64,000 nt of DNA from Candidatus Latescibacterota bacterium (lineage in GTDB: Bacteria > Latescibacterota > UBA2968 > UBA8231). The stretch lies in assembly GCA_963422735.1 (NCBI GenBank), contig OY730476.1, forward strand, positions 4,416,001 through 4,480,000, read 5' to 3'. Of the stretch, positions 8,601 to 45,191 are shown piece after piece. Made by a program: the position numbers and the translations under genes. Below the pieces are notes generated by a model. That model searched no databases. It was not told where the DNA came from and saw only the letters and a program-made list of their open reading frames with translations. The stretch's first letter is position 1. Each line of letters begins with the position of its first letter.

Positions 8601-8768
8601 AAGGACTGTTTGATCAGTGATCCGTTCCATCCGCCCCCTTGGCGGTGGGTACCCGGCGACGGGCCCCGGAACATTGACGCGGGGGACCGCGCGGGCCCGG
8701 ACGAGGGCTACGGGCCAGCCGAGTGAAACTGAAACCTGAATTCCCAACCGTAAACTAGGAAATTCCGT
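8601..8768 (-). mobile_element. MITE-like family A, copy 1 (reverse orientation, one TIR missing)
   Basis: Reverse complement matches 35658-35855 and 43774-43984; ends CTAGGAAATTCCGT. Confidence 0.85.
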
Positions 8769-9100
8769 GGGACGAAAATGTACATGGAATCGTCTTACGG
8801 GAGTGCATGGCTTAGAGGTTTGTTCGTAGGAGCCCACCTAAACAAAAATTTCATGGTAAGCGTTAGATTTGCTCCCTCCGTTTACAAAATCCACCACAGA
8901 TACGGGGATGAAGAGAGAAATAGTTTATTCATTAGTAAGCCAAATCTGGGAAGGGATGACTGCGGCATTACCAATCGCCAGCAGTACGGCAACAGAGGTG
9001 AGGAACGGACTGGTTCGCCAAATAAACGCCAGCAAACGTGGCAGGAGACTCACAAGGGTAGATAGCCGACTTATCCGTCACTCACACCTAATGACCGCCC

Positions 9101-11064
9101 TCAGTACAAGTAGCAGTCGGCGACGCATTGGACGATCTCCGCCACGGTCGTCTCCGTGCCCTTAATAGCATCGTGTACCCGGTAGTGCCACGGCTCACTC
9201 CCCAACCCAGCGCGCCAATCTCGAATGGCCTCGATATTGTCCTCGCCCGCCTTTTGCAACTGATTGAGACGGCCGCGCACCAGAGCTTGATTTTCCACAT
9301 CCGCTAGGTCGAGAGTGGCCATTTGTTCGGCGACCCAATAGACGCCGCGTGCCAATTCCACATAGGACTGCACTACCCGCGTCTCGTGGGCCAGATCCGC
9401 TTCCCCAAGCCCCTCGACAATTTTCAAGGCCCGGTCGCAGATCGCGGCTTTGGCGTCGAAGTCTTCGACCGTGAGATAATAGCGGAACATGCCCTCGCCC
9501 AAATAGGGCCGCTGCCGCTGCCGCACCATCTGTGCGGCTTTGCCCCAAGAATAGCATATCGGGAAATCGGAATCGTACACGTCGAATTCCACCGGCCCCA
9601 TCAAGGTGGCCCACTCGGCCACAGCCTCTGGATGGGCATAGCCTTCCTGCCGGGCCCATGCCAAGGCGAATTCCGCCTCGTCGCGGCCTTGCGCGTTCCA
9701 AGTCCACTCGGCCAAGGCGTGGATATGAAGCTGCAAATCTGGCGCTCTGGACCGCCCCACGCCATCATGCCATAAGCCCCACTATAGCCCCGCCGCACCA
9801 GTTGGCCGATGTAGTCCCGCAAGCGGTGGGCCGAGCGCTGCGGCACCTTGAACTCGGGCGTATCCACTTTGCCGTTGGCCGCAATAGGCACATCGTAACT
9901 GGCGATCCAGCGCCCTTCAGCCGCATAGTGGTCCAGCAGCGGATTGGCCATTAAATCGCGAGGCCGATGCAGTACGCGCTCCAACTCGGTGGCGCAGGCC
10001 CGCTCAATTTTTACCTCTGGCGGCAATTCGTCCAGCACTCGATAGTTGTGCACGGTGGTGGTGGTCGATAAAAAGATGCGAATCTGCAAATTGGGATAGT
10101 GCTTTTGGGCCCGCCGCCAAGCCGCGACAAAAGCCCGCGCCTCCAGTGCGAACTGCCCCACCGCAGTGCATTCCAGACAGCCGCACTGCCCCGGCCGTTC
10201 GCTCAACCAGCAGCTTATTTCCCCGGCCCCCTGCCCGGCGATATCCTCCATCCACTCTTGCAGAATTTGCACCAATAGCGGCTGCGAAGCGCAGGGAACC
10301 CGGTGCTGATTGCCTGCCTTGTGGGCGAAATAGCGCCCGGTCAAAGCCCCATCTTTCTTGCCAGCTAGTTCGGGATAGGCCCTGAAAAGGCCGCAGTCGT
10401 GCAGGAAGTTGAGGTGCAGGATATAGGGTAGATAATTGAAAGCCCGCTGCCGCGCTGCTTCGAACTGTTCCCGGTCGATAGTGGCCCGGTTGCGCTGACC
10501 GCGTTCAATGGGGTGCAGTTGCGTCGAGGCCATTTTGCCGTAGTTCAATTTGAGCTTGGCCAGCCACGGGATCCAAGTTTCGGGCTCGGGAAAATTCCAC
10601 AGGCCCCGCTCGTCCACATCGGGCCAGTCGATCACCTGTGCTAGGGGGATGTGCACCTGCTCCCGGCTCATTTCGGGCTCGAGCAATTGGAAAAGGGTCC
10701 GGCAGGCGTAGTACGCGCCGCGCTCGTCTGAGCTTGTCAGCACCAGCCCGTTTCGCCCCCGTGGCTCAATGAGGTATGCTTGGGCTTTATTCTTTAAGCT
10801 CTGGAGCCGTTCAATGGCCCCGCTGTTCGCCGGAGCCACGCCAATATCGATGGTAAAGGCCTCACCGTTTGGCTTTGCTTTTCCCTTTTCAATGAACAGT
10901 GCTTCCAACTCGGCGGCACCCTGCTGCTCGATTAGCCCCGCGTGCTCCCGCAGCGCAATGCCCACTTCGCCCGGCCTACAGCGGACACTGTCGGCAATGC
11001 GAATCTCGTGAGGCAAGGGCAGCAGATAGGATGTCCACAATTGCATTGGCTTAGCCTCAGTCAT
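9101..11064 (-). pseudogene. GH20 domain-2-like protein split by one frameshift near 9725
   Basis: LLPLP...AYLI...GAYYACRTLFQL...IDWPDVDERG; frame switches at ICSF/IHALAEWTWN. Confidence 0.7.
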
Positions 11065-11902
11065 GCGAACTCCTTTGCTTGCGCAGCCTTTTCGGCGGGG
11101 TGGCCGATACGCCTTCCATGCCGCCGCTGACGCGGAGCACTTCGCCGGTGATCCAAGACGCGGCCGGGCTACACAAGAAGGCCACGCCTTGGGCAATATC
11201 CTCGGGCTCGCCCCAGCGTCCCAAGGGAATGGCCGCGCGAATGCGCTCGATCATTTCTTCTTCGGATAGCCCTAAGGTGACGCGGCGTTGGGTCATATTG
11301 CGCTGGTTGAATTCCGTGTACACCGGCCCCGGACACACGGCATTGACTCGCACGCTGTACGCGGCCAACTCCAGCGCCAAGGTCCGGGTGAGACTGATGA
11401 TACCGGCCTTGGCCACATTGTACGCAGCGACCAAGGCGGCCGGATTCTGGCCATTGATCGAGGAGATATTGACGATGCAGCCGGCCTCCTGTTCCTCCAT
11501 GATGCGCCCGGCGGCGCGGCAGCAGTAAAATGCCCCGGTTAGGGTGGCATCCAGCACCCGGTGCCACTCGGCGTCCTCCAGTTCGACCACCGGAGCCACC
11601 TGTTGGCCAGTGCCGGCGTTGTTGATTAGGATGTCCACTCGCTCCTCTTCGGCGACTAGCTCGGCGAAAAAGGATGTTACCGCAGTGCTGTCGGTTATAT
11701 CGAGTGCTACGGCCCGCACGGTTAGGCCCTCGTCGTGGAGCTTCGCGGCCTCCTCACGCGCCTTATCCTCCTGCCGGTCGGCGATGACCACGTTGGCCCC
11801 GTCACTGGCCAATTGCCGGGCGATCCCCAGCCCCAAGCCTTGGGCACCGCCCGTGACGACGGCGATTTGCTGGTCCAGTAGAAGGTTTTCAAGCTGATTC
11901 AT
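11057..11902 (-). CDS. SDR family oxidoreductase (FabG-like)
   Basis: TGGAQGLG, NNAG, YNVAK, VNAVCPG. Confidence 0.95.
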   Translation of the reverse strand: MNQLENLLLDQQIAVVTGGAQGLGLGIARQLASDGANVVIADRQEDKAREEAAKLHDEGLTVRAVALDITDSTAVTSFFAELVAEEERVDILINNAGTGQQVAPVVELEDAEWHRVLDATLTGAFYCCRAAGRIMEEQEAGCIVNISSINGQNPAALVAAYNVAKAGIISLTRTLALELAAYSVRVNAVCPGPVYTEFNQRNMTQRRVTLGLSEEEMIERIRAAIPLGRWGEPEDIAQGVAFLCSPAASWITGEVLRVSGGMEGVSATPPKRLRKQRSSHD

Positions 11903-11932
11903 CGGATAACCTCATATCGGTTTAGGAACGAC

Positions 11933-12466
11933 TCAGGATTTTCTCTTGAAGAAAAATCTCACAACATCGCGTTCTTCTAAGACGACGTTATATAGATCGT
12001 AAACTTCCGCATCGAGATCTTCCGCTTGTCTGAGACCTGCTAGGAGCTGTTCCTTTGCAAATATAAATGTTAGGTCATCTCCATCTAGGAAGTACCCTAA
12101 TCTCGTGCTGTTGCCACCCGCGTCGGTGGTGATGAAAGTGCCGTCCTGAATGCGCCATGTTCCTTTATTACCACTGTTGTCCTTCCATGTATTGTCCGCA
12201 TTATAGCGAATTATTTCGCGAAAGTCTCTAACATACTCTTCAGTACTGGCAACCGCTTCATCAATATATGCCTTAGCGTCTGTCCGGCTCACTCCTTGCG
12301 CGACGAGGAGGTTTTCGAGTCGCAGGGCTAGAATATCGATTAAATCCGTCCCTTCAAATACCCATGTGCCAACGAGATCATTTTCAGGTCCAGTAGGTTC
12401 AGTACCACAGGCGGTTACCCCAACTCCTAAGATAAGGGCCATACTCGCGGCTAACAGCCGTTTCAT
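11933..12466 (-). CDS. Lipoprotein of unknown function (lipocalin-like)
   Basis: Lipobox VTA-C; LVGTW and GTW motifs; lower GC than flanks. Confidence 0.75.
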   Translation of the reverse strand: MKRLLAASMALILGVGVTACGTEPTGPENDLVGTWVFEGTDLIDILALRLENLLVAQGVSRTDAKAYIDEAVASTEEYVRDFREIIRYNADNTWKDNSGNKGTWRIQDGTFITTDAGGNSTRLGYFLDGDDLTFIFAKEQLLAGLRQAEDLDAEVYDLYNVVLEERDVVRFFFKRKS

Positions 12467-17069: not shown

Positions 17070-19196
17070 TCAGCCGATGATAAACACTATATTGCCGGTC
17101 TTGCCGGTAAAGTAGTCGATGACAATCCACAGGCCGTTGCACAGGCTCTCGCCCATAATCAGCCCCAAGAAGAAACGCACGCTCGCCGCGTAGAACGCCG
17201 GCCCGCCAAAGCGCAGCACGAGCCGCTTGACCGCCCAAGCGATGAAAATGCTGAACCAGATCTTGTCCATCAGGTGATTGGCTGCCACGGCAAAACCGAG
17301 CGGGTGTAGAGGCCACCAAAGCACGTGATGTCGCGCCCACATCAACAAGAGCATGACCGCCCCACCGCCAGCGCAAAAAGCGAGTCCGTCCCAAGCCACA
17401 CCCGCCGGCTCCAGCCCGCGCACCGCATAGTTGTACACGGTGGACGGCCCGCCCTTAAAAAACCACCCCACCAGATTGATCCCCCCGTGCCGGTGTGCCA
17501 TGTGCAACACCATCCAGCACGAGCCAGCCGCGCCAATCAAGATCGCCAAACATACCCCCCACATCACCACCCGCCGGCTCGGGCGCGTCATGTCCTCGAC
17601 CAGCTTCAGCCCGTTGGCCAACAGCGCCATCACAAAGATGCGGATGTCGGCACACCAGATATAGGCCAGCGACAAATTGAACACCCCGCTGGTGCCGATC
17701 AGGTTGACGCCCAAGCCGTGTATCATCAGGTCCGGCGCGATCATGGGCGAGCGCACGGCTGCCAACCCTGCTTCGGCTACAATCCGGCTAATCCCGATAA
17801 AAATCAACAGCGCGAACCCAATAAACACCGCAGCCACCCATAATTGCACCCCCATCAGCCACAGCCATCCCACCATCGTCCCCACGCCGGCCAGCAAGGT
17901 GCAAACCGCGCCGCGATACGAGACGATCTCGTCGCCATCGTCTATGTCGCACACGCCCCCAAATGCCTTGCGGAATACTTGCTTCAGGTGTTCGCGGCTC
18001 ACCCATAGGCCGGCCAGTACCATCGCCAGCAGTGCGCCGCCGCCCTGATAGGCCAGATAGGGCTGGGAGGCAATGCCATAAACGAACTTCTGCTTGGACG
18101 TCAGGCCCATCAGCAGTAGGATCTCGGACTCGGCCCGGACTAAGAGCTGGAAGATCCACAGGCCGGCCGAGATGCTCGTGTTGATCAAATAAGAAAAACC
18201 CACTAGCGCGAAGATGATCCGCAGTTGCAAGCGCTGGCCGAAGTAGGGCATGCTCCATTGCAGGCTTGCATTGGGCATAGACGGTTCGTACTGGTGCAGG
18301 GCCTCAAGCGACCCCCACAGCACTGGGATGGCGCAGCCATACCACATGGCCCGGCTCTTAAAAAAGCGGTTGACCAAACCCCGGCCCTCGCCCTGCACCA
18401 TGGCCGCCCCCACCTGCGCCACTGGGTACGCCAGCCGTTCGCGGTCCATCCACTGCCGCCGCAAGATCACGGCCGCAGCGACCATCGCCGCGTAGAGCGC
18501 GATGAGGAACACCGCCCACCACAACAGCGGCTCGGCCCAAGCCCCATAAGGGATTTCCCCGCCCTCGAAGAAACCGCGGTTGTCCTTTCCGTCGTCGACC
18601 AAGATCGCGTGCTCGGGCAAGAGCGGGCCGAGCTTTTCCTGCCACTTGTTTAGCGGCGTACCGTAATACGCAAAGGCCGCGAGAATGGGCAGCAACTGCT
18701 GGCTCATGCCCATAGTACACAGGGCCGAGACCATCAAGAGCATGATGTACACCAAGACCAAGTCGGCGCGGTCGAGAGCCAGCGATCCACCGTGCCAGAC
18801 CAAGGCCGCGTTGAGCAGCAACGAGGCCACCAAAAAGGAGGCAAACCACAGGCCCGGCTTGAACAGGTCAATCTGCGGCTGGGGCAGATAATAAGCCAGA
18901 TAGAGACCCAGCCCTACCGCAGCTACCCCCAGTGCCCAAAATCCGTTCCGCGCCACCACCTTGAAGAGGACGTTTAGCAGGCCGATGAGCACGAGAAACA
19001 GGAAGATCGCGCCGGGGGTATTGAAGTCCCACGCCATAAAGGTCGCGTGCATGGCCATGTTGGCGTATGGTGCGCCAATGGCGAGGAAGAAGCTGAGAAA
19101 GATACCCGTCCAAAAACCACGCCAAGTTACGCCGATCGCGGCTCCCGGGCGGGATTTAGGGGAGGTGGCAAAGGTGGAGGGAATGGACCGCTGCAA
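17070..19196 (-). CDS. DUF6785/DUF6784-type polytopic membrane protein, paralog 1
   Basis: RRQWxxxERLxYP, RIVAEAG, WWPLHPLG, FFLGLIMGE; paralogous to 61043-62995. Confidence 0.8.
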   Translation of the reverse strand: MQRSIPSTFATSPKSRPGAAIGVTWRGFWTGIFLSFFLAIGAPYANMAMHATFMAWDFNTPGAIFLFLVLIGLLNVLFKVVARNGFWALGVAAVGLGLYLAYYLPQPQIDLFKPGLWFASFLVASLLLNAALVWHGGSLALDRADLVLVYIMLLMVSALCTMGMSQQLLPILAAFAYYGTPLNKWQEKLGPLLPEHAILVDDGKDNRGFFEGGEIPYGAWAEPLLWWAVFLIALYAAMVAAAVILRRQWMDRERLAYPVAQVGAAMVQGEGRGLVNRFFKSRAMWYGCAIPVLWGSLEALHQYEPSMPNASLQWSMPYFGQRLQLRIIFALVGFSYLINTSISAGLWIFQLLVRAESEILLLMGLTSKQKFVYGIASQPYLAYQGGGALLAMVLAGLWVSREHLKQVFRKAFGGVCDIDDGDEIVSYRGAVCTLLAGVGTMVGWLWLMGVQLWVAAVFIGFALLIFIGISRIVAEAGLAAVRSPMIAPDLMIHGLGVNLIGTSGVFNLSLAYIWCADIRIFVMALLANGLKLVEDMTRPSRRVVMWGVCLAILIGAAGSCWMVLHMAHRHGGINLVGWFFKGGPSTVYNYAVRGLEPAGVAWDGLAFCAGGGAVMLLLMWARHHVLWWPLHPLGFAVAANHLMDKIWFSIFIAWAVKRLVLRFGGPAFYAASVRFFLGLIMGESLCNGLWIVIDYFTGKTGNIVFIIG

Positions 19197-19199
19197 ACT

Positions 19200-21050
19200 T
19201 CAATACTCCACGTGGATGCCGGCCAGCGCGGGCGTCTTGGCGACCAAGGTGCGCACGCGGCGAAGATGCCGCTGCCCGGCCCGGCTCAGCGCGGGCTCGC
19301 CCCCGGCCAGCAAATCGCGCTGTTCCAGCGCGTCGGTCGCCAAGTCGAACAGCATGGAGCCGCGCCAGCTATAGTTGATGTACTTCCAATCGCTGGCCAC
19401 AACCGCGTAGCCTTTGCGCGACCACTGCACGTGCTCGTCTGTGTTGACCACCACGATCAAACGCTCGGGATCTAGCGGACGCAAAAGCGAGCGGCCGTCC
19501 AGTCGCTCCTGCCACGCGCCGACCAAGGAATCGGCGGACAGCCCGAGGAGGTCCAGCGCGGTCGGCACCAAGTCCGTTAGCGCGACGCGCATCTGCGCGT
19601 TCTCGCGCCACAGATCGAAGCTGGTGCCTAGCCGCTGCCGGTGCCGCTCGGGCACGACGGCAAAAAACGGGACGGCAATCGCCGTCTGGTAATACGAATC
19701 CGTGCGATGGAGTTTGTGGATACTGTCGAGGTCTTCGCCGTGGTCGGCCGCAAAGATCACACTCGTATTCGCCGCTAGGCCCTGTGCGGCGAGGTGGTCG
19801 AACAGCCGTCCGAGCAGGTGATCCATATAGGCCACCGCACTATCGTAGCTCGCGTCCGGCCACGGCTGCCAATCCGGCGGCGAGTACCCCGGATAATGTG
19901 TGCAGTTGAATTGCAGGGCCACCACAAACGGGCCGCGTGCGGCAAAGTGGTCGATAGTTGCGAGGGCTTCGGTCATCATCCGGCGGTCGTCCATCCCTTC
20001 GGAATTGACGATCTCGGCGTCCGAGCGCTCGAGCGTAAACACATAGTCCAGCGCATCGTCAATAAAAAAGCCTTCGAAATTGTTCCAAGCATAGCTCTGC
20101 GCCGAGATCAGCGCTGTCTGGTAGCCGGCGGCGTGGGCGTAGTGCCACAGCAGCGGGAAGGTGTGCTGCTCCACGGGCGTGCGCGATGGGAAAAGCCCGG
20201 TCAGCATGGCCGGCAGTGCCACCTTCGTCGCCGTAGCATTGGACACGGCCTTCTCCATCTGCACCCAATCGGCTGGCCGCGCCTTTCGCAACGCCGCCAG
20301 CCGGGGCGTAGTTTGCCGCTCGTACCCGTAGAGGCCGGTGCGGCTAGGCGCGACGCTTTCCCCGATCACCACGATGAGGTTGGGCGCACGCTCATCCACG
20401 GGTGCGCCGCTGTGCATGGCACCCGACGCCGGGCGGCTCGCTTGCAATAAACGTCCGTGTACCCCGCCGACAAGCGAATGGACGGCAAGGTCAACGGCCA
20501 GTTTCGCAGCCGCCGCATCCGGCACCATGACGCTCGCGTGGCGATGCACCGCGCCAAAAGCCACCGCCCCGGCCAAGCACAGCGCGACCAAAACTCTGCC
20601 GTGCGCCATCTGGCGGCCTAGACGCAGCTTGTAGTGCCACCAGCCTATGACAAAGGCCACAAAGGCCACCCAGACGACCGCATCCCCCCAATCGGCCTCA
20701 TTGCAGATATATCCCCAAACCTCGCGTGGATGGCTAGCTGAATGCACGAGCGCGTAGGCCGTCGGCCAGCAGTAAAATATCTCGTGGAAGCCAATCCATA
20801 GCAGAGCCAGCGCGGAGGTCACTAAGCCGACGACGATGACAAACGCGGTTTGCCAGCGCGGGTACAACCGGCTGCTGAGCGCGAAAAGGCCCTGCCACAT
20901 CACCAGCGAGAACACCACCGACAGCCCCCACCACGCCCACTGCGTCGGGCGCAAGTCGAGCGTCGGCCGCAGCCATAGATCGACGGCCACTCCCAACAAG
21001 GTGATGGGAAGCAAGGGCAACGTTTGCTTTCGCACGCAGGGATCGTACAT
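19200..21050 (-). CDS. Membrane-anchored sulfatase-fold transferase (EptA/LtaS-like)
   Basis: About five TM helices, VVIGES, Thr-containing NATAT, THYP, ADHGE; no CxPxR. Confidence 0.8.
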   Translation of the reverse strand: MYDPCVRKQTLPLLPITLLGVAVDLWLRPTLDLRPTQWAWWGLSVVFSLVMWQGLFALSSRLYPRWQTAFVIVVGLVTSALALLWIGFHEIFYCWPTAYALVHSASHPREVWGYICNEADWGDAVVWVAFVAFVIGWWHYKLRLGRQMAHGRVLVALCLAGAVAFGAVHRHASVMVPDAAAAKLAVDLAVHSLVGGVHGRLLQASRPASGAMHSGAPVDERAPNLIVVIGESVAPSRTGLYGYERQTTPRLAALRKARPADWVQMEKAVSNATATKVALPAMLTGLFPSRTPVEQHTFPLLWHYAHAAGYQTALISAQSYAWNNFEGFFIDDALDYVFTLERSDAEIVNSEGMDDRRMMTEALATIDHFAARGPFVVALQFNCTHYPGYSPPDWQPWPDASYDSAVAYMDHLLGRLFDHLAAQGLAANTSVIFAADHGEDLDSIHKLHRTDSYYQTAIAVPFFAVVPERHRQRLGTSFDLWRENAQMRVALTDLVPTALDLLGLSADSLVGAWQERLDGRSLLRPLDPERLIVVVNTDEHVQWSRKGYAVVASDWKYINYSWRGSMLFDLATDALEQRDLLAGGEPALSRAGQRHLRRVRTLVAKTPALAGIHVEY

Positions 21051-21248
21051 CCGAACCTGAGAAGCGTTCTTAGAGGCCCTAACCAAACGCCCGGCGTCGG
21101 CCCAAGCGCGAGCGAGCAAGGCCGTGGCCGGCGCAGCCGCGCGACGCCAGCAGAGCGTTTGGTTTTCGCTTAACTAAACCGCATTGGCCTTAAATTCCGG
21201 TTGGAGCCCCTCCCCATAGGCTTCGACGGCTCGCCGAAGGGTGCGGGG

Positions 21249-21409
21249 ACTAACCACTAACCACTAACCACTAACCACTAACCACTAACCACTAACCACT
21301 AACCACTAACCACTAACCACTAACCACTAACCACTAACCACTAACCACTAACCACTAACCACTAACCACTAACCACTAACCACTAACCACTAACCACTAA
21401 CCACTAACC
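21249..21409 (+). repeat. Perfect tandem heptamer array (ACTAACC)x23
   Basis: 161 bp counted directly; preceded by a GC hairpin ending AGGGTGCGGGG. Confidence 0.98.
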
Positions 21410-21414
21410 ATTGC

Positions 21415-22326
21415 CTACGCGCCCAAGATCCCGAGGTGCTGCAACTCCTTTTTGATGGCCTCGCGCCCTGCTGGTGGTACGTTGATGCGGGGTGGACGCA
21501 CCGCACCACCGGCTAGCCCCATCAGCTCCATCGTCGCCTTGAGCATTCCGGCATCGTCAAAGCGCGAGCGCAACCGCTCCAAGGGGGCCAGCCGCTCCTG
21601 CAACTCGATCATCTGTGGCCAATCCTGCCGTTGCGCGGCGGCGAAAAGCGCCAGCTCTAGCTGCGGAGCGAAGTTGACAAAACCAGCGGTAAAGCCCTCG
21701 ATCCCGGCTTGGAAGCGGAAATGCAACACGCCCGGGTCGTAGCGCTTGTTGCCGATCCAGACGAAGCGGTCGCCGAGCCGCTTGATGGCGCGGAAGAGGT
21801 GGTGCGGCTCAACGCAGGGGTCCTTGATCGCGGCGATCTGCGGCACTGCGGCCAGCCGCTCGAAAAGTTCGGCCGACCAGCCCTGCGTATTGTAGGGCAT
21901 CAGCACCAACCCCGACCGCGTCCCCAGCACTTCGTAGTATTGATACACGCCTTCGGGATCTTCGGGCACCTGATGGCGCGTGTAGGGTGCCATAGCCAGT
22001 GCCACGCGCAACCCCAACGCCTCGTAACGCGGTGCCAAGTCCGCGGCCTCGCCCAAGTTGCCGGGCAAGGTCGGCACCACCAGCGCCCGCTCCCCCACCG
22101 TCGCTAGGGCGCACTCGGACAACACCACGCGCTCGGTCGGGGCCAACGCGTCGTTTTCGCCCGTCCCGCCAGCCACCACAAAAACCCGTACCCCCCTGTC
22201 GGCGGCCCACGCTATATTGCGTGCAAACCCGTCCAAGTCGAGTGCGCAGAGATCATCGCGCTGATAAATGGTCAGGGTGTATGCGTGGACATCTTTTAGC
22301 TGGTCGCGCAAAGCATGGTCGATCAT
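21415..22326 (-). CDS. Dihydrodipicolinate synthase/N-acetylneuraminate lyase family protein
   Basis: AGGTGE, MPYN, AIKD, VRPP. Confidence 0.9.
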   Translation of the reverse strand: MIDHALRDQLKDVHAYTLTIYQRDDLCALDLDGFARNIAWAADRGVRVFVVAGGTGENDALAPTERVVLSECALATVGERALVVPTLPGNLGEAADLAPRYEALGLRVALAMAPYTRHQVPEDPEGVYQYYEVLGTRSGLVLMPYNTQGWSAELFERLAAVPQIAAIKDPCVEPHHLFRAIKRLGDRFVWIGNKRYDPGVLHFRFQAGIEGFTAGFVNFAPQLELALFAAAQRQDWPQMIELQERLAPLERLRSRFDDAGMLKATMELMGLAGGAVRPPRINVPPAGREAIKKELQHLGILGA

Positions 22327-22339: not shown

Positions 22340-24034
22340 CTAAGTGTATTCAGATATTTTCCACACCGCGGTTGCCTGCTTCGCCAACCATCTTTGATGC
22401 TCCTCTAAGCAGTTCATGTTCCATTCCGAGTACTCAGAGATGTGATGATTAATGCGATACTCGCTGGCCTGTAGCTTCTCTCTTTTTTGCTCAAAAACTT
22501 CCTGCCCCATATTTTGATGCGAAGGCAGCAAGGCCATGTTACCCAAACGATCAATCGCATTTTCATAGGTTTCGCGGCCAAAATAAGCCTGCCAATCGTC
22601 TCCTGGATTGTACGGCAACACATGTTCGATCGTCAGATTTTGGGGGGCTTGGCCGCCTAAATGCGTTTCAATTGCTCGCAACAGAAACATAATTTTTTTG
22701 CTACTGCGGCGACTTGGCATACTCTTGGCACCAAAGTGCTGGCGCACCTCTGCATCGTGCGGATAGATTGGCTTTAGCCTATCCATTACCTCTTGCAACG
22801 ATAAGCCTTCCTTCATTAACTGGTTGGCGGTACTGTTGTAAATCCGCTCTTGGTCATTGGTTGCTAGATTGCAAATAACATTGTAGCGCAGCGTCAATAC
22901 TTCAATATAGTTTAGCAGCTTGATGAACTCTTGCGGCGAAAATTTTTCATATCCTGCCATGAGCAGACTGAGAGGTGTTTTAATGCCAAATAGCTTAAGG
23001 GCTTCTAAATGGGGCTTTGCTTGTGTATATCGGCCCTCTCGTTCTTTCTAAAAATCGTCGTGGGGTTCTTGCAGGGCGGCATAGACTGGAGCCCGATCTT
23101 CGAGTTTTCCAAGATAGGGAATGACCTTTTCAGCTACATCGATTTCTCGCCTGAGCAACTTGTAAAGTTCTCTCTTGTGTGGAAGAGGGTCGGTCATTCC
23201 CCTATGGCTGCGGAGAAAATTGGCAAACTCAGTCTCGCCTAGTTGTTCAATGATAATCTGCCAGCGTCCGGCAAAGTCATCGAGGTTTTCCTCAGTGGAA
23301 AAAGCCGGATGACTTGCAAACGTTGAGAGGAGATAGTTTTTTAACAAATCTGGAGTTGCCAAATGTACACCACGTGCGTTGAGGGTCTCAAAAACAGTAT
23401 AGGCATTCAAATCATCTTTAACGGTAATCGCCGTAAAGAGAAGGCCATCTGCTATATCTCCCACTAGGGTCGCCAGCTTTCTCCCATCTTTTCCCATCTG
23501 AGAAAGTTTATTTGTAAAGAACTCAAACGTCCTATTTAATGCCCGGTTTGTCTTTGTAAGCCTGCGCCTAGTGGGTACCTCCAACCTTTCCGCCATAGCC
23601 CGAAAGTGCTGATTGTTGTGTCAATTGAGTACCAGCTTTGGCGATGTCGTTAGCGCAATGGAGTCAAAAACTCCAACATAGGTCCTTTTGTATTCCTCTA
23701 TCCTTTGCCGATTGGCCTCTTTATCGATCTGGCCATCGGCCAATGATTGTAATGTTTTCAATACTGCTAATACAACAATAGAAACAGTCGTTATCCGTTG
23801 CTGGCCGTCGATGATTTGAAAGCTCTTTCCATCCTCGGTCTGCAAAACCAGATAGCCCATAAAATGCTGAGTCTGGCTTTGCTGCATCTGCTCAATATCC
23901 TCCCACAGCTCCTCCCATTGTTCGTATTCCCAAGAATAGTCTCGCTGAAATGGGGGTACGATGTACCTCCTGTTACTGGACATGATCTCGGCAAAACACC
24001 TGTTTTCTGGATCGAGATAGATTTTCTCAAACAT
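22340..24034 (-). pseudogene. Second DUF262-DUF1524 (GmrSD-like) gene with two in-frame stops
   Basis: Three ORF pieces in one frame; TGA 23621-23623, TAG 23048-23050; DGQQR, FETLNARG, IEHVLP...LGNMALL. Confidence 0.9.
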
Positions 24035-25986: not shown

Positions 25987-26037
25987 ACCTCAAATCTCCA
26001 GTCGAGTTGCATTCCCAAGACGAGCGCGTGTTCCAGG

Positions 26038-26793
26038 TTATGATCGCACCTCTTCAAAAAGCGAGGCCCGTGCGTGGAAATACGGTGGTTCAAAAAGCAG
26101 TGCCTGCCGCTCGGTTAAGGAGACGCTGCCCGGCGGCTCAATGTGGTTTTTGGACCACGACTGCTGCCCGGGGCTGTACTTGAACAGCAGCGAGCGCCGC
26201 TGGTGCGCGGCCCGCCACGGTGCGGTGCCGTGCGTGAGTGCCTCGGTAAAAATCACCACCGACCCGGCTTTCGCCTCCGGCACCACCACGCACCCGGCCT
26301 CGACATGGGCCTCGCGGATTTCCTGCGGACAGGGGTAATTGACTTTGTGGCTGCCCGGAATGCAGCAGAAACCGCCCTGCGCCGGTCCGGTGTCGGCCAA
26401 ATTCCAAGCGACGACCGTCAGCCCATTGTACATCTGTCCATTGCGGAAGTGGTAGTACTCCGGCGGGTCGTAGGGCGTGTTGCCCCCGTGCAACCCGAGC
26501 CGCTCGGCCCCGGCATCCAGATAGATCGCATAGTAGTGGTCGAGCCGGAAGCCATCGCCGAGGATCACTTTGAGCAGCGGCATAATGCGCTCGTGGTCGA
26601 GCAAATCGACAAAGGGCTGGCCCCACGTCAAAAACCCGCCGCTGTGTAGCCGCCCCTGAGCCTGCTCGACATCCGCGCCTATCTCTCGGGCGTCAATCAG
26701 CCGATTCAACTCGGCAACAGCTTCCGCATCCAACGCGTCCTCGACAATCAGATAGCCCTGTAGGTCAAACAGATATTGCTCCACTTCGGTCAT
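26038..26793 (-). CDS. PhyH family Fe(II)/2OG oxygenase (HxG variant)
   Basis: FDLQGYL, LHGG, CIPGSHK, FTEALTHG. Confidence 0.9.
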   Translation of the reverse strand: MTEVEQYLFDLQGYLIVEDALDAEAVAELNRLIDAREIGADVEQAQGRLHSGGFLTWGQPFVDLLDHERIMPLLKVILGDGFRLDHYYAIYLDAGAERLGLHGGNTPYDPPEYYHFRNGQMYNGLTVVAWNLADTGPAQGGFCCIPGSHKVNYPCPQEIREAHVEAGCVVVPEAKAGSVVIFTEALTHGTAPWRAAHQRRSLLFKYSPGQQSWSKNHIEPPGSVSLTERQALLFEPPYFHARASLFEEVRS

Positions 26794-27529: not shown

Positions 27530-28146
27530 CTAACGGCGAATATCTATACCCACATCTAAGGCATTTTTTAGCCCATCGGGCGAATATCTGTAGGCTTTGA
27601 TCCTGTCGTCATCGAGCTTGCCCAGCCAGAAGCAGGCGACAGAATCCGATTTGTCCTTCAAGGCCAGACTCAAACCCTTTATAACGTCACTGCTGTGAGT
27701 TGTCATGAATATCTGCGTGTGGTTTTGCTTGGAAGACTTCAGCACCATATCCCACATATATTTTATAGAAGAAACATGGAGTCCGTTTTCAATCTCGTCG
27801 ATAACTAAAATCTCATTCCTAGCCCAATAAATATTGGAGAGTATATTCAGAATACGTAATATCCCATCTCCAAGATGGTTAATCGGCAAAAAGCTATCCA
27901 CTCCAATATCGACCCTATCCTTATATCTCGCACTTTTGGCTCTATGGACTGAAGACTACTCACTAGCACGGCCTTGCGCTTTTCATTAAGCATCCTGCCA
28001 ACCATATTCGGACCGTATGACAGACCTAAAAACCAAATATGTGTAGTTTCCTTGTAATCTTCGTCGTAATCGTCCGCTTCCGCGCCGCTCAGATATGATT
28101 TGTACTCGTTCAGGCTATTGCCGAAGTCCATAAGACGCGCCTCCAT
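27530..28146 (-). pseudogene. AAA_21/ABC-type ATPase C-terminal remnant
   Basis: LGDG, LVIDEIENGLH, FMTTHS; no Walker A; frameshifted. Confidence 0.8.
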
Positions 28147-34738: not shown

Positions 34739-35587
34739 TCAATCGGCCCGCAACACCGCGTTGTGCGCGGCCAGATCCCAAGTCTCGTTGTACACCAGCG
34801 GCTGGGCCCGTGCGGGCGGATGGCCGGAGGGCTGATTATTGGAATTGAGCAGCTCCAGCCGATCGCGGCCTCGGGGCGCGTCGAGCCACGCCCGCTCCTC
34901 GGGTGCTGCTTGCACCGGACGCCGCAAAATAAACTCCACCCGGTCGCGGCGCGAGAAGGCCGCATGGGCGACGAAGACCCGATGCAAGTCGCGTCCATCC
35001 CAAGTCCCCAAATCCGGCAGCAGTACCGGGCCGGTGCAGACTTGGTATTGGCCATCGGCCGCGTTGAGATTCATGACGTTGATCGGATATTCGAGTTCGA
35101 CCTCAATACCACTCGCCGCGTCTTGGTACACCGAGCGGGCGTTTTGTGCATCGCCGGCAAAGGTCGAGGCCACAATCGCGTCGGCTTCTTCCAGCGCCTC
35201 GGATGCAGGATAGGAGCGGATGTCGATGGTATAATCCTGATACGCATCCGCTAGTGGGCGCGCGCTGCTCACTTCGGGCTCCGTGCTCGGTCGCTGGGCA
35301 ATCGCCGGAATCGAGGAGTGGCTAAAGGCCATCCGCCACTCGCCGCTGGGGATCTGGAACAGGTTTTCGCTGGCAATGGTGTATTCGCTGCGGCAAGGTG
35401 CGCCCAGAAAGAGTTCGGCCAACTCGGCTCCACCGCTGTCGCGCAAAACACAACGGGCCTCTAAGGTGAAACGCACGTGATAGACCTGACCGTGCTCGCC
35501 GACAAAGCCGCCGGGCCACTTGTAATAAGGGTCCGGCTTCGCCGGATGGGCCTCCCACGCAAAGGATGAACGGGGGAAATTGATCAT
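34739..35587 (-). CDS. Hypothetical protein
   Basis: 282-aa ORF with GGAG RBS, co-oriented with downstream oxidoreductase. Confidence 0.7.
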   Translation of the reverse strand: MINFPRSSFAWEAHPAKPDPYYKWPGGFVGEHGQVYHVRFTLEARCVLRDSGGAELAELFLGAPCRSEYTIASENLFQIPSGEWRMAFSHSSIPAIAQRPSTEPEVSSARPLADAYQDYTIDIRSYPASEALEEADAIVASTFAGDAQNARSVYQDAASGIEVELEYPINVMNLNAADGQYQVCTGPVLLPDLGTWDGRDLHRVFVAHAAFSRRDRVEFILRRPVQAAPEERAWLDAPRGRDRLELLNSNNQPSGHPPARAQPLVYNETWDLAAHNAVLRAD

Positions 35588-35657: not shown

Positions 35658-35855
35658 ACGGAATTTCCTAGTGTACGGTTGGGGATTCAGGTTTCATGTA
35701 GGCGGTATCACTCGGCCTGCCCGTAGCCCTCGTCCGGGCCAGCGCGGTCCCCCGCGTCGATGTTCCGGGGCGGTCCCCGCCTCCAAGGGGGCGGATGGGA
35801 CGGACCACGGACCACGGACCACTGATTAAACAGTCCTTATTCTAGGAAAGTCCGT
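35658..35855 (+). mobile_element. MITE-like family A, copy 2 (198 bp)
   Basis: TIR ACGGAATTTCCTAG / CTAGGAAAGTCCGT; flanks TGTAGT / TGTAAT. Confidence 0.9.
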
Positions 35856-35928: not shown

Positions 35929-36519
35929 ATGACTCGCCCTAATGCGTTCCACTTCGCATGGGTTGCCGCCCTGACGTTCGCCCTTACCGCCGAGGCGACC
36001 TTGGCGGAAACTTACGTGGTCGATGCTGCACACTCTTCGGTCGATTTCAGCATTCGCCATCTCGTCGGCCGCACAAAGGGCCGTTTCGGCGACTTCAGCG
36101 GCACCATCGGCTACGACGCCACCCAGCCCGCAGCCTCCAGCCTCTCCGGCACTATTCAAGTCAAAAGCATCGACACCGGCAACAAACGCCGCGATGGCCA
36201 CCTGAAAAATGCCGACTTCTTCGATGCCGAAACCTATCCCACTATCACCTTCGAATCTACAGAGGTGACCAGCACGGGCGAAAACACCCTCAGCGTGAAG
36301 GGCAAGCTGACCATGCACGGCACCACCAAAGAGGTCACCCTGCCCGTCGAGATCCTCGGCACCGGCACCAATCCGCGGAGTGAAAAGGCGCAGATCGGCC
36401 TAGAAACGAATTTTTCTATACTCTGCTCCGATTACGGAGTCAATAGCTGGGCACGCTTTAGCGCCGTTCTCGGAGACGAAGTAAAAATTCAGGTGTTGAT
36501 CGAGGCCAACGCAGAGTAA
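35929..36519 (+). CDS. yceI: YceI family polyisoprenoid-binding protein
   Basis: Signal peptide; DAAHSSVDFSIRH, RDGHLKNADFFD, GKLTMHG. Confidence 0.9.
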   Translation: MTRPNAFHFAWVAALTFALTAEATLAETYVVDAAHSSVDFSIRHLVGRTKGRFGDFSGTIGYDATQPAASSLSGTIQVKSIDTGNKRRDGHLKNADFFDAETYPTITFESTEVTSTGENTLSVKGKLTMHGTTKEVTLPVEILGTGTNPRSEKAQIGLETNFSILCSDYGVNSWARFSAVLGDEVKIQVLIEANAE

Positions 36520-41662: not shown

Positions 41663-42448
41663 CTATTGCAGGAGCTTGCCGGGAATGCGCGAGCCGGGAT
41701 ATTCCTTTTTCGGGTCGCGCTCGGCGATGATAGCTGGTACTTCGTCGGTCCAATAGGCGGGTACAGTCTCCGGGCGCCGGTGCCAAGCCAGCACCAACGT
41801 GCGACGCTGGTCGGTCTGGTTGCGATGCGCCGAGTGCAGAACGCGGGCGTCGGCCAGCACCAAGTCGCCGGCCTTGACGCAGACATCGATTTGGTCCGGG
41901 TGATCGCTGAACATGGTCGGGTGGTCTTCTTCTATGAAACGCGCCCCTTGCTCGTGGGCCGGAACCATTTCGTCGTGCAGAAGAATGCGCTTGTGATGGG
42001 TGCCGGGGATGACTTTGAGGCAGCCGTTCTCCGGCGCGGTATCGCTCAAGTAGTAGGACACAAAAATGATCTGCGGCCACGGCGAACAGCTCAAGGGATC
42101 GTTCCACTGCATCCAGTCTTGGTGCCAATACAGGGCCGGTTCGCCAGGGTCTTTGGTCAGGAGGATGATCCCGCCCGTGCTGGCAAAGTCGCCTAGGCTC
42201 ATCTGTTCGAGGGCGCGGCGCGTGGGAGGCCAGTCGAGCAATTTCTGGATGGTCGGGTTGTCCTCCCCGCGTGCGGTGACGTGCTGGCCTTGGTACTTGA
42301 AGTCGGGCGGCGGCACCCAGTCCTCCATCATGCGCTCGGTCTCGTCGCGCAATTCCCGTAAGAATTCGTCGCTGAGAATGTTATCGACGACGCAGAATCC
42401 GTCGCGCAGTAGCTGTTGGCGTTTTTCTATGGCTTCTTCGGGAGTCAT
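41663..42448 (-). CDS. PhyH family dioxygenase (canonical HxD)
   Basis: WHQD, GCLKVIPGTH, AGD...LHS. Confidence 0.92.
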   Translation of the reverse strand: MTPEEAIEKRQQLLRDGFCVVDNILSDEFLRELRDETERMMEDWVPPPDFKYQGQHVTARGEDNPTIQKLLDWPPTRRALEQMSLGDFASTGGIILLTKDPGEPALYWHQDWMQWNDPLSCSPWPQIIFVSYYLSDTAPENGCLKVIPGTHHKRILLHDEMVPAHEQGARFIEEDHPTMFSDHPDQIDVCVKAGDLVLADARVLHSAHRNQTDQRRTLVLAWHRRPETVPAYWTDEVPAIIAERDPKKEYPGSRIPGKLLQ

Positions 42449-42482
42449 TGCAAACCTCGTCGAAAGGTGTGGGGTCAGAGCT

Positions 42483-42960
42483 TCAATTCTGATAGGGCCC
42501 GGTGCGGCCTCCGGTCAAGGCGCGGTCAAAGCTAGGGCGCAGCAGTTTGGTTAAAACGGGCGGTAGTTCGCCCCGCTGCGCTTTGAGTGCCCATAGCGAC
42601 GGCACGGCATGGGGTGGTTGCACCAAGCCAGTGCGATCGTCCGCTTTTTTGTACGCGTACAGGGAACACCAGCAGGTCGGCCGGTCCGCCCCCTTCGGAG
42701 CCACGCCGTGAGCTCCGTGCGACAGGCAGCAGACAACCGAGCCGGGGGGCAGTTCGAGGTGTTCGATGGTCAGCGGCTTCCCAGTGATAGGGTGGACGCG
42801 CCCCTTGAGCCAACCAGCTTCGATCTCCTCGTCGGTGGCCCCTCGGCAGTTGTCCGGGTCTAGGTATTGCAGCGTTTCGAAATCGTTCATGGATATAATG
42901 AGGCGGGGGCGGTAAAATCCCGGAAATTGTATCAACGGTCTCCAATATAGCCAGACCTAT
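42483..42960 (-). pseudogene. PhyH family C-terminal fragment
   Basis: GWLKGRVHPITGKPL...GSVV...HGAHGV resembles C-terminal half of 25237-25986; N-terminus absent. Confidence 0.65.
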
Positions 42961-43069
42961 CGCACGCCTCAATGAGGCCGGGGCGGGGACGCCCCGATGA
43001 TCGCCTGTACGACCTGCCTTTCCAGAAATTGTCGACAGATCTCACACGGCTCGTCAAAACCCGCTGTGC

Positions 43070-43345
43070 TTACGGGATAACTTCAAAGCCCATCTGTAGG
43101 AAGTGATGGTCTAATGTCAATGCTCGGCGAATTCGCAGTTCTCGCATGAGAACAAAGCTGCAGCAGTCGGTGAAGGAGAATTCCTTATCCCGATAGCCGA
43201 AGAAGAGGGACCGCGCCCATTCTCTTCGCGTTTCATCAATGGACTCGATCCGCCGTCGAGCCGAGCCGTCGAGTTGCTGCCACCTATTGCGAATCGACAC
43301 AGGTCGGATGGTTGTTTCGGCCCTGCTTGTGACGGGCTCGCTCAT
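43070..43345 (-). pseudogene. VapC/PIN toxin C-terminal half fused to an unrelated N-terminus
   Basis: FSFTDCCSFVLM...ALTLDHHFLQMGF; N-terminal acidic PIN motif missing. Confidence 0.7.
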
Positions 43346-43379
43346 TCAGCGCGTCGAGGGCTTGATTCCAGCGCCGATC

Positions 43380-43626
43380 AGGTCCCAAGGCGGAAAATCA
43401 AGTGGCAGCATCCGCCACGGGATAGTGCCCTTGACGACATAGAAGATCGCACTGACCACATCGCATTTGGCCCATTTGCCGGGGTTGCCCCAAGGGTCGG
43501 GACGCTCGAAAGACGCCGCGATCTGAGCCCACTCCCGATCGGTCAAGTCGCTGGATTTCCATTATCTCTCTATGCAAAAGATCAATGCCGATATTCATAT
43601 TCTTTTTAGCGGAGATAGGCACAGCC
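43380..43626 (-). mobile_element. IS5-family (IS1031-like) remnant: one end plus transposase N-terminus (DUF4096)
   Basis: SDLTDREW...AIFYVVKGTIPWRMLPLDFPPW; end reads TAA|GGCTGTGCC on minus strand. Confidence 0.8.
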
Positions 43627-43628
43627 TT

Positions 43629-43757
43629 AGGAGCGTTCTTAAACCCCCCTCGGGCTGCTTTGCGAGGCTGTCGAGTGGCTCATAGGGCGAGACGCCCTCG
43701 GTCCTAGATACTTTGAGCTGAGCGAGAGACCGAAACCCTAGTTTTAAGAACGCTTCT
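43629..43757. mobile_element. MITE-like family B (129 bp)
   Basis: 15-bp TIR AGGAGCGTTCTTAAA / TTTAAGAACGCTTCT, one mismatch; same end recurs at 21058-21072. Confidence 0.75.
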
Positions 43758-43773
43758 CAAGCGATATAACTTA

Positions 43774-43984
43774 ACGGAATTTCCTAGTGTACGGTTGGGC
43801 ATTCCGGTTTCATGTAGGCGGTATCACTCGGCCTGCCCGTAGCCCTCGTCCGGGCTAGCGCGGTCCCCCGCGTCAATGTTCCGAGGCCCGTCGCCGGGTA
43901 CCCGCCGCCAAGGGGGCGGATGGGACTAACCACTAACCACTAACCACTAACCACTGATTAAACAGTCCTTCTAGGAAAGTCCGT
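43774..43984 (+). mobile_element. MITE-like family A, copy 3 (211 bp)
   Basis: 14-bp TIR with one mismatch; perfect 6-bp TSD AACTTA (43768-43773, 43985-43990). Confidence 0.93.
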
Positions 43985-43993
43985 AACTTAATT

Positions 43994-44206
43994 TCAGTGG
44001 TCCAACCTGCTACGGCTCTTACATCGGCCTGTAAGTGCATTGACAACAGAGGATTTCCCACTATTTACAGGACCGTAGAGTGATATAACTAATTTTTTTG
44101 ATCTCCTCGAATTCCTCGCTTTTTTCGCAAAAGATTCCTCGACTGCTTTTTTATGTCCCTCGACATCGGGTTCATCGGATTCAAATGCGTCGTTTACTTT
44201 GGCCAC
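43994..44206 (-). pseudogene. P-loop GTPase N-terminal fragment
   Basis: LYGPVNSGKSSVVNALTG then stop. Confidence 0.55.
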
Positions 44207-44275: not shown

Positions 44276-44737
44276 CTAAGCCGATATATCGAGCAGGGCC
44301 TCTTCGTCGGCCAAAGCGTAGCCCTGTTCCAGCAGGTCGGCGAGGGTTGTGCGCGATAAAATTTGATCAACGGCCTGCTGCACTTGCCTCCATAGTGCGC
44401 GAACCGAACACGCAGTGAGCGAGTGCGTGCAGCAATCCGCGCTGCCGGCGAAGTGATCGCAGAAGTCGTCGTCGAAGAGGCGACCGCCCAGCGTGGCGAG
44501 CGCGTCGGCCACGGCGATTTGGTGGGGGGGCCTAGCGAGGGCGTAGCCGCCTTGCTGGCCGCGGGCACTTGCCACAAACCCGCCTTGCCGGAGAATGCGC
44601 AAGAGCTTGGCGACGTTGTGATGCGTGATCCCCTCGGCTTGGCTGATTTCCGGGATGGTCAGGCTGCGGCCGGGGGTTTGGCGCGCTAGTTGCAACAGGC
44701 AGCGCAGGCCGTATTCTTCGCGCGAGCTGAGTTTCAT
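44276..44737 (-). CDS. Rrf2 family regulator (IscR/SUF type)
   Basis: EYGLRCL, RGQQGGYALA, Cys cluster C..CC..C. Confidence 0.92.
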   Translation of the reverse strand: MKLSSREEYGLRCLLQLARQTPGRSLTIPEISQAEGITHHNVAKLLRILRQGGFVASARGQQGGYALARPPHQIAVADALATLGGRLFDDDFCDHFAGSADCCTHSLTACSVRALWRQVQQAVDQILSRTTLADLLEQGYALADEEALLDISA

Positions 44738-44738
44738 A

Positions 44739-45077
44739 TTACATCATGCCTAGTTCGAGTTTCGCCCCCTCGGTCATCATGTCTATCGTCCACGGCGGAT
44801 CCCACACGACCTCGACCGAAGCCGTGGCGAGGCCCGGGACATGGGCCTTGATTTTGTGCTCGATTTCCGGCGGTAACGTGCCGGCCACCGGACAGGCGGG
44901 CGAGGTCAAGGTCATGGTCACGTGGACGTCCTGCGAGTCGCTGACCTCGATTTCGTAGATCAGGCCGAGGGCAAAAATATCGACCGGAATCTCGGGGTCG
45001 TAGCAGGTTTTGAGCACGGCCACCACTTTGGCCTCGGTAGAATTAGGGGGAAAGGTTTTTTCGTGCAACAGTTCCAT
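44739..45077 (-). CDS. sufT: SufT/DUF59 Fe-S assembly protein
   Basis: DPEIPVDI..LGLIY, TLTSPACP, VWDPPW. Confidence 0.9.
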   Translation of the reverse strand: MELLHEKTFPPNSTEAKVVAVLKTCYDPEIPVDIFALGLIYEIEVSDSQDVHVTMTLTSPACPVAGTLPPEIEHKIKAHVPGLATASVEVVWDPPWTIDMMTEGAKLELGMM

Positions 45078-45090
45078 AGAGGACTCCTTT

Positions 45091-45191
45091 TTAGTGATCA
45101 GTGGTTAGTGGTTAGTGATCAGTGGTTAGTGGCCACCCCCTCTAGGTAGGGTGCGGGGAACTGATCACTGATCACTGATCACTGATCACTA
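45091..45191. repeat. Tandem-inverted heptamer palindrome between sufU and sufT
   Basis: Five GATCAGT/GGTTAGT units, 29-bp spacer, four ACTGATC units. Confidence 0.92.

Follow-up and report, generated by a model that had tools for sequence, protein, structure and literature searches.

Heptamer Arrays of the Window

The window analysed here comprises 64,000 nucleotides (nt) of a Candidatus Latescibacterota bacterium (GenBank assembly GCA_963422735.1, contig OY730476.1, positions 4,416,001 to 4,480,000) and contains tandem arrays of seven-nucleotide units at five loci, all five of which lie between open reading frames (ORFs) with family support. The arrays were shown to be parts of two repeated carriers, namely an element of about 200 bp resembling a miniature inverted-repeat transposable element (MITE) and a module marked by the 12-mer AGGGTGCGGGGA (anchor B). 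The coordinates of arrays and carriers are listed in Table 1.

The units follow the consensus ACKRAYY. A pattern scan of the window with the corresponding tandem pair ACKRAYYACKRAYY gave 37 matches against 0.05 expected, a number reached by none of 100 dinucleotide shuffles, and also caught the two-unit site at 8612–8625 on the minus strand. An earlier note on this DNA had placed heptamer arrays at five positions, which were borne out by Tandem Repeats Finder (TRF) and the pattern scan; of its count of five plus four units at 45091–45191, the position and the right arm (x4.4) held, and the left arm proved to have 6.0 units rather than five. With head-to-tail units, a period of 7 nt, and up to 23.1 copies, the arrays belong to the long simple sequence repeats (SSRs; units of 5–11 nt, longer than expected by chance). 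Five units were observed (ACTAACC, ACTGATC, ACTGATT, ACGGACC, and ACGGATC), differing from each other by one to three substitutions, and internal purity was high, with 100% TRF matches for the longest array and for the 21-nt block of the left arm at 45091–45132. No further period-7 runs were detected in the 64 kb by a plain period scan and TRF, and the plain period scan found nothing comparable at periods of 8–12 nt. Single units outside the arrays occurred at the expected frequency, without enrichment.

The two strands of the ACTAACC unit contain TAA and TAG, respectively, and ACTGATC has TGA on both; since 7 and 3 are coprime, arrays of these two units stop all six reading frames. The ACGGACC unit has no stop codons. 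Coding repeats were ruled out by two of the three units having stops in every frame, CRISPR by the period of 7 nt and the lack of spacers, intrinsic terminators by the lack of a U-tract, and telomere-like ends by the internal position. Promoter and terminator scans returned counts at the level of shuffles, with no predicted terminator at any array.

A MITE-like Element Carrying Three Arrays

Alignment from end to end identified three of the five array loci as copies of one element of about 200 bp; hence, these loci are not independent observations. The element is non-coding, 198–211 bp in size, and present in three copies in 64 kb. Copies 2 and 3 bear at both ends the 14-bp terminal inverted repeats (TIRs) ACGGAATTTCCTAG and, on the reverse strand, ACGGACTTTCCTAG. 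The TIR motif had five matches in the window against 0.46 expected, and all five are located at MITE-like elements. The flanking 6-mers are identical at copy 3 (AACTTA/AACTTA, 6/6) and nearly so at copy 2 (TGTAGT/TGTAAT, 5/6), which suggests a 6-bp target duplication, a weak sign given that only two copies are informative. In copy 1, the left TIR is intact and the right end is degenerate, with no target duplication. The element has the anatomy of a MITE, and this structure suggests that it is mobile.

In all three copies the heptamers occupy one homologous internal position, between GGGGGCGGATGG(G/A) and ACTGAT(T/C)AAACAGTCC, so that the array is an internal variable-number tract adjoining the right end. 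The anchor GGGGGCGGATGGG is exact at 35787 and 43912 and has one mismatch at 8626–8638 on the minus strand. Copies 2 and 3, at 35.7 and 43.8 kb, are 96% identical over the first 114 nt and differ in the unit and copy number of the tract, as the earlier note had described for near-identical carriers.

A profile built from the three copies (nhmmer) retrieved no additional full copy in the window. The sole ORF of at least 80 aa across a copy (8583–8837) had no family match, a protein search with a 49-aa MITE-encoded peptide gave no candidate, and the element had no match in Rfam. Only heptamer-level matches were obtained with it in a plasmid search. An invariant 20-mer of the element was found in genome contigs at six loci of unrelated GC-rich genomes; the BLAST matches covered only 20–21-mers and were attributed to chance.

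Copy 1 lies 89 nt past the stop codon of a gene at 6108–8501 with a C-terminal domain of the CHU_C/T9SS type, a domain also present at 63056–63994 and suggestive of the FCB group. Copy 2 sits between the divergent genes 34739–35587 (minus strand) and YceI, 35929–36519 (plus strand); for the 282-aa protein encoded beside it, an atlas search gave uninformative best scores of 0.80–0.81. Copy 3 is located downstream of the minus-strand suf/Rrf2 gene string described below. An AT-rich stretch beside copy 3 contains a 70-aa ORF (43994–44206, minus strand) whose end is 10 nt away from the right end of the copy. This ORF corresponds to a GTPase in the initial P-loop portion alone (MMR_HSR1, E 3e-4), and it may be what is left of a gene at the insertion site or close to it.

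The 12-mer Module and the Inverted Pair

The exact 12-mer of anchor B occurs in the window only at 21238 and 45148. At 21.2 kb it forms a single carrier, and at 45.1 kb a head-to-head inverted pair, in which the copy at 45148 precedes the ACTGATC array, and the inverted mixed array comes after the mirror half of this copy, GGCCACCCCCT, with CTAG at the centre. Of the three architectures at five loci claimed in the earlier note, the five loci stand, and the architectures come down to two carriers, of which one exists both singly and as a head-to-head pair.

The 23-unit array lies in a 295-nt spacer between the stop codon of a DHDPS-family gene (21415–21417) and the start of a sulfatase-family gene (21119), 4 nt from the former. 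Both flanking genes are on the minus strand, and RNA of this strand across the array would read (GGUUAGU)n. The module at 45.1 kb fills the 116-nt spacer between sufU (TIGR01994) and a sufT-like gene: the right arm ends 3 nt from the sufU stop codon (45194–45196), and the left arm stops immediately ahead of the AAAGGAG and start codon ATG belonging to the SUF-associated sufT-like gene (44739–45077). The minus-strand gene string reads sufB, two inserted ORFs, sufC, sufD, sufS, sufU, sufT-like, and Rrf2. The two inserted ORFs, at 48998–50637 (minus strand), interrupt the string between sufB (50686–52197) and sufC (48205–48954); one has a Swt1-like HEPN domain (E 5e-8) and the other a weak, sub-threshold GIY-YIG match (E 6e-4).

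Table 1. Positions of the heptamer arrays, their carriers, and associated features in the window.
Feature	Position	Strand	Remarks
MITE-like copy 1	8590–8768	-	nhmmer E=5e-57 (8768–8596, envelope to 8590); TIR match at 8755–8768
Two-unit proto-array ACGGATC ACTGATC	8612–8625	-	Inside MITE-like copy 1, directly after GGGGGCGGATGGA
Anchor B, AGGGTGCGGGGA	21238–21249	+	Directly 5' of the 23-unit array
(ACTAACC)x23.1	21249–21410	+	TRF, 100% matches
MITE-like copy 2, 198 bp	35658–35855	+	TIRs ACGGAATTTCCTAG and CTAGGAAAGTCCGT; nhmmer E=5e-69
(ACGGACC)x3 + ACTGATT	35800–35827	+	TRF x3.3 (35800–35822); inside MITE-like copy 2, directly after GGGGGCGGATGGG
MITE-like copy 3, 211 bp	43774–43984	+	TIRs as in copy 2; nhmmer E=5e-71
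(ACTAACC)x4 + ACTGATT	43925–43959	+	TRF x4.4 (43925–43955); inside MITE-like copy 3, directly after GGGGGCGGATGGG
Whole inverted module	45091–45190	-	Predicted single long stem-loop between sufU and the sufT-like gene, suf sense strand
Left arm of the inverted pair	45091–45132	-	TRF, 6.0 units, or 21-nt block x2.0 at 100%; own sense ACTAACC ACTGATC ACTAACC ACTAACC ACTGATC ACTAA
27-nt G/C-rich spacer, CCACCCCCTCTAGGTAGGGTGCGGGGA	45133–45159	+	Imperfect palindrome around CTAG; anchor B at 45148–45159
Right arm of the inverted pair, (ACTGATC)x4.4	45160–45190	+	TRF

G-Rich Anchors and Predicted Folding

The G-rich anchors noticed earlier are present, with GGGGGCGGATGGG at the MITE copies and AGGGTGCGGGGA at 21238 and 45148. 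The G-rich runs read GGATGGG, GGATGGA, GCGGGG, and GCGGGGA, with GGGGGTGGCC at the left arm of the 45.1 kb pair. The two anchor classes align only loosely; matches of the MITE profile (nhmmer) at 21.2 and 45.1 kb (E 3e-5 to 4e-4) extend into the array. The resemblance of the anchors is mostly explained by the carriers being copies by common descent, and carrier dispersal would account for shared anchors without new biochemistry.

The claim that the anchors close a GC hairpin did not hold, since the anchor DNA folds no more stably than dinucleotide shuffles. The z-scores were -0.5, -0.2, and -0.8 for the three GGATGGG anchors, and, for the two AGGGTGCGGGG anchors, +1.1 at 21.2 kb and +1.2 at 45.1 kb. 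The central 35 nt around anchor B reached -3.5 kcal/mol (z +1.2) and thus do not form the stable hairpin expected of repetitive extragenic palindromic (REP) elements and REPINs; the hairpin at 45.1 kb is made only by the array arms. The RNA of the minus strand at 45078–45196 was predicted to fold at -46.4 kcal/mol (z -6.2), with none of 200 shuffles as good, and the DNA folds of the inverted module gave z-scores of -6.6 and -6.0. The ACTGATC tract (45160–45190) is self-complementary, with DNA z-scores of -3.2 and -5.1 for the two strands. The ACTAACC array is unstructured on both strands (minimum free energy of 0). No gathering-level match to Rfam was found in the window, and at 21.2 kb there was no match at all. 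A match of the 45.1 kb hairpin to a plant miRNA precursor (33 bits against a gathering score of 59 bits) was considered spurious.

The Same Units in Other Replicons

Arrays of the same units were found in three other bacteria, and the G-rich anchor was absent from all three. In Pseudoalteromonas donghaensis (NZ_CP032091), an intergenic (ACTAACC)x27 is preceded by CGACTATCTAACC, with no G-run. An intergenic spacer of Mycetohabitans rhizoxinica (NZ_CP062173, positions 340–480 of the excerpt) contains four successive homogeneous blocks that differ by one to several bases, (ACTGATT)4 (ACTGGTT)3 (ACTGATC)6 (GTCGGTC)7, and provides a clear textbook example of mutated units amplified locally and in turn. 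In a Microcystis plasmid, ACTGATA, ACTGATC, and ACTGATT are interleaved. The 50 kb of P. donghaensis examined held one ACTAACC array; the plasmid search had listed 24 places in the record, most of which are probably offset alignments of this one array. The pure 161-nt array gave no megablast match against plasmids and phages, a result that probably reflects low-complexity masking and is not evidence of absence. A 37-nt match to enterobacterial IncN-type plasmids was treated as chance.

The P. donghaensis excerpt also contains an unrelated (TCGCATC)x42 (83% matches, 19112–19407 of the excerpt) 3.4 kb from the ACTAACC array, and a motif of about 30 nt, GTTCGGCGCTAAAGCACCTCCTACCTCGC, occurs twice just upstream of the latter. 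The arrays of this species may also adjoin a small repeat.

Gene Content of the Window

The Pfam scan covered 251 of the 254 ORFs of at least 80 aa (left out were the edge ORF 3–449, its shorter form 156–449, and the open-ended form at 63056–63994); 190 of the 251 had no Pfam match. None matched reverse transcriptase (RT), transposase, or recombinase families, in line with the statement of the earlier note that the window holds no RT-type enzyme. Among the same ORFs, there were also no Avd-like or nuclease candidates for repeat addition and no REP-associated tyrosine transposase (RAYT). The genes neighbouring the arrays have no common function, and the defence-type genes (GmrSD, a HEPN domain, and an AAA_15 fragment) include nothing that would add repeats.

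Three consecutive ORFs at 22340–24034 (minus strand) correspond to GmrSD_C, a piece of GmrSD_N, and GmrSD_N, and appear to be the three parts of a disrupted type IV restriction gene. This stretch has a GC content of 49% against about 59% elsewhere, and an intact 561-aa GmrSD gene is located at 3593–5278 (plus strand). The 123-aa ORF at 27530–27901 (minus strand) matches AAA_15/AAA_21 ATPases at their C-terminal end alone and probably represents part of an ATPase of the defence type; positions 26001–28000 are also low in GC (49%). The window further contains two paralogous large proteins with a DUF6785 + DUF6784 architecture (17070–19196 and 61043–62995, both minus strand), six PhyH-family ORFs, and several sugar-acid, sulfatase, and sulfotransferase genes. 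GC skew is negative at 6–42 kb and positive at 42–64 kb, with the cumulative minimum at 40–42 kb. On either side of the switch, the minus strand carries most of the supported genes, and neither dnaA nor another marker gene was seen; the change at about 42000–44000 could reflect a landmark of replication or the breakpoint of an old inversion.

Origin and Possible Roles of the Arrays

The arrays probably represent one lineage-specific, non-coding heptanucleotide SSR family (ACTAACC, ACTGATC/T, and ACGGAYC) that was spread by small mobile repeats and reshaped by slippage. The carriers would disperse the seed and the anchor around the genome, and slipped-strand mispairing during replication, possibly with unequal exchange, would then expand, contract, and homogenise each array, helped in ACTGATC tracts by self-pairing. 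Contraction, mutation, and re-expansion may replace the unit, with a mutated unit sweeping a short array, which would account for the differing units and copy numbers in carriers otherwise 96% identical. The module at 45.1 kb may have arisen as a head-to-head pair, and the predicted stem-loop of about 100 nt in the suf transcript could, in the manner of REP elements, have a side effect on how stable the mRNA is or how it is processed. Their intergenic location is probably the reason why the arrays are tolerated, and no dedicated enzyme would be needed. Slippage on a shared seed, one of the two options offered by the earlier note, agrees with the purity of the arrays, the inherited seed and anchor, the duplicated 21-nt block, and the block succession in Mycetohabitans; copy 1 keeps the two-unit seed ACGGATC ACTGATC in unexpanded form.

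Several points weigh against this explanation. Slippage was inferred, not observed, from a single window sequence, and the sample is small, with five loci from only two independent carriers. The window contains no transposase, no empty site and no further copy were found, and copy 1 has no recognisable right end. All six arrays, read in the A/C-rich sense, have a G-rich run on the 5' side, and the same heptamers recur in unrelated phyla. Moreover, ACTAACC is present at three loci (21.2, 43.8, and 45.1 kb) on two different carriers, which independent slippage from different seeds does not predict and which requires shared descent, inter-locus exchange, or selection.

Selection would maintain the unit sequence if the arrays were cis-acting sites bound, on RNA or DNA, by a protein with a 7-nt register that controls the neighbouring genes post-transcriptionally or transcriptionally. 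HutP and other ring-shaped RNA-binding proteins recognise UAG triplets that stand 4 nt apart, the spacing also present in (GGUUAGU)n. The sharing of ACTAACC by three loci on two carriers would fit such sites, as would the two arrays lying 3–4 nt from stop codons, the one just before a Shine-Dalgarno sequence, and the identity of units across phyla. Where a single array comes after a co-directional gene, as at three loci, the G/U-rich form lies on the sense strand of that gene, although a polarity of three in three arises by chance in 1 in 4 (either strand) to 1 in 8 cases. A regulatory role is also the hypothesis of MacGregor for TAACTGA repeats (PMC4679880), and a Nostoc preprint (10.1101/2022.06.06.494920) reports that removal of a heptamer array altered the response of a recO promoter reporter to LexA and NtcA in E. 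coli, according to the available portions of these sources. However, the units vary by locus, ACGGACC and ACTGATC share no triplet like UAG, and arrays have anywhere from 2 to 23 copies. At three of the five sites, the position simply reflects where a mobile element landed, single units are not enriched, the neighbouring genes lack a common function, and no candidate binding protein was identified. Binding sites are an unlikely explanation. It is quite unlikely that ACTGATN/ACTAACC is, instead of an arbitrary slippage product, the recognition unit of a conserved factor with a 7-nt register, for which small carriers would be the vehicle seeding repeat networks within and between genomes; if true, this would explain the occurrence of the units in the present bacterium, Cyanobacteria, Beggiatoaceae, Bacteroidetes, and a beta- and a gammaproteobacterium. 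A bolder variant, in which units are added enzymatically by priming at the anchor, has lower odds.

Inter-locus recombination or gene conversion could also spread ACTAACC by concerted evolution, with the arrays serving mainly as recombination substrates that rearrange the genome. Consistent with this, ACTAACC is found in a MITE copy, in the long array at 21.2 kb, and interleaved with ACTGATC at 45.1 kb; every unit of copies 2 and 3, which are 96% identical outside the array, differs at two of seven positions; and a role in rearrangement was suggested for long arrays in the available text of PMC4679880. Arrays of 21–31 nt nevertheless offer little length for homologous recombination, none of the arrays in the window shows a rearrangement junction, and the array-bearing spacers of Xanthomonas are more stable in gene order than controls (PMC4692102, available portion). 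Contraction, mutation, and re-expansion explain the replacement of units equally well, and exchange as the main process appears very improbable. The other option of the earlier note was an undescribed, RT-templated process at structured anchors, that is, an RT or telomerase-like enzyme that adds or homogenises heptamers at a structured G-rich anchor. The G-rich run on the same side of every array, the perfect homogeneity of the arrays, and the multiplication of the anchor-adjacent unit in copies 2 and 3, where the distal ACTGATT stays single, speak for it. It found no support in the remaining data: the 251 ORFs include no RT, Avd-like, or nuclease candidate, the anchors fold at shuffle level and provide no structured template or primer, and their similarity is explained by carrier homology. 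In the three other bacteria, long arrays of identical units lack a G-rich anchor, the arrays here are internal to the chromosome and between genes rather than at ends, and a 21-nt multi-unit duplication fits slippage or unequal exchange, not the templating of one unit. Enzymatic addition is thus extremely unlikely, and dispersal by mobile carriers followed by slippage is preferred.

If so, the arrays are physically part of small, apparently mobile carriers, which provides a simple dispersal route; neither a function nor a spreading route of heptamer repeats was found by PMC4679880 or PMC4692102, as far as their available text goes. For annotation, such stretches should be masked as a MITE plus a microsatellite. 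Assemblies may collapse them, and their use as markers for strain typing is conceivable. Within the suf string, the inverted pair is a testable case of a predicted repeat-made mRNA stem-loop. A new field would be opened only if a repeat-binding factor were found.

Comparison with Known Systems

Among the closest published repeats are the TAACTGA direct repeats, which are intergenic, have 2–43 units, occur in Beggiatoaceae, 15 Cyanobacteria, and 5 Bacteroidetes, and are often mixed with other heptamers (MacGregor 2015, PMC4679880, available portion). According to the same text, TCACTGA and TTACTGA are one-base variants (Table 3 of that study), a stem-loop is predicted for TCACTGA repeats, a role in translational control was proposed, and recurrence of such heptamers across phyla was argued to be unlikely by chance. 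The present arrays are likewise intergenic tandem 7-nt units of two to tens of copies, some of them near start or stop codons (the array at 45091–45132 lies just before a Shine-Dalgarno sequence and ATG, and two abut stop codons), with stops in the forward frames and mixing with related heptamers; ACTGATC and ACTGATT are rotations of the variants TCACTGA and TTACTGA. In contrast, the exact TAACTGA (rotation ACTGATA) is absent from the arrays of the window, the dominant ACTAACC differs from it at three of seven positions, and three arrays are part of a MITE-like element, whereas the available text of PMC4679880 describes no evident means of transfer. A targeted search of the TAACTGA literature since 2016 gave only primer noise among the matches listed.

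In two Xanthomonas genomes, 186 and 183 GGGAATC arrays of 2–26 units and 70 and 75 convergent inverted pairs were reported, the arrays varying in length and sequence between close relatives, and polymerase slippage, an idea of Mrazek 2007, was repeated as the explanation (Rehm 2015, PMC4692102, available portion). Like these repeats and the GGGGAYT repeats of Nostoc, the present ones form an over-represented intergenic family of one consensus with variable positions, and, as in Xanthomonas, an inverted pair able to form a stem-loop occurs (45091–45190). The units of Xanthomonas and Nostoc are G-tract, quadruplex-prone sequences, whereas ACTAACC lacks G on one strand and forms no structure. Three of the five arrays here lie in a MITE-like element, while the available text of PMC4692102 gives no general link of GGGAATC arrays to mobile elements.

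The element shares with bacterial MITEs its size of about 200 bp, 14-bp TIRs, a short target duplication, the lack of an ORF with a family match, AT-rich insertion sites, several intergenic copies, and an internal variable-number module. Pneumococcal BOX elements are modular MITEs with a variable number of boxB modules; the variable module here is a 7-nt microsatellite and not a 45-nt box. No parent insertion sequence or transposase was found in the window. Elements of the REP/REPIN type consist of inverted short repeats in intercistronic spacers and form a long transcript hairpin. The module at 45.1 kb is similar as an intercistronic inverted pair of short repeats with a predicted long transcript hairpin, but its arms are microsatellite arrays and not a fixed palindrome of 20–40 nt, the 12-mer has only two copies in 64 kb, the central palindrome alone is not significant, and no RAYT-type (IS200/IS605-like) transposase occurs among the 251 ORFs. 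The likeness to RT-templated addition (telomerase, retrons, and diversity-generating retroelements) is superficial, consisting of short G/T-rich arrays with a fixed polarity to a G-rich flank; the arrays are internal and intergenic, and the window holds no RT gene or gathering-level template RNA of Rfam.

The class to which the arrays belong is thus known, comprising intergenic heptamer SSR families, inverted pairs, and MITEs. A consensus with variable positions, variable copy number, inverted pairs, and differences in near-identical contexts all have counterparts in the available parts of the published work. A targeted literature search for the exact double units gave no relevant publication, and, as far as such searches show, the units, the carriers, and their combination are not described. 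The dispersal vehicle missing from the available text of the TAACTGA study (PMC4679880) would be supplied by a MITE that contains a heptamer tract.

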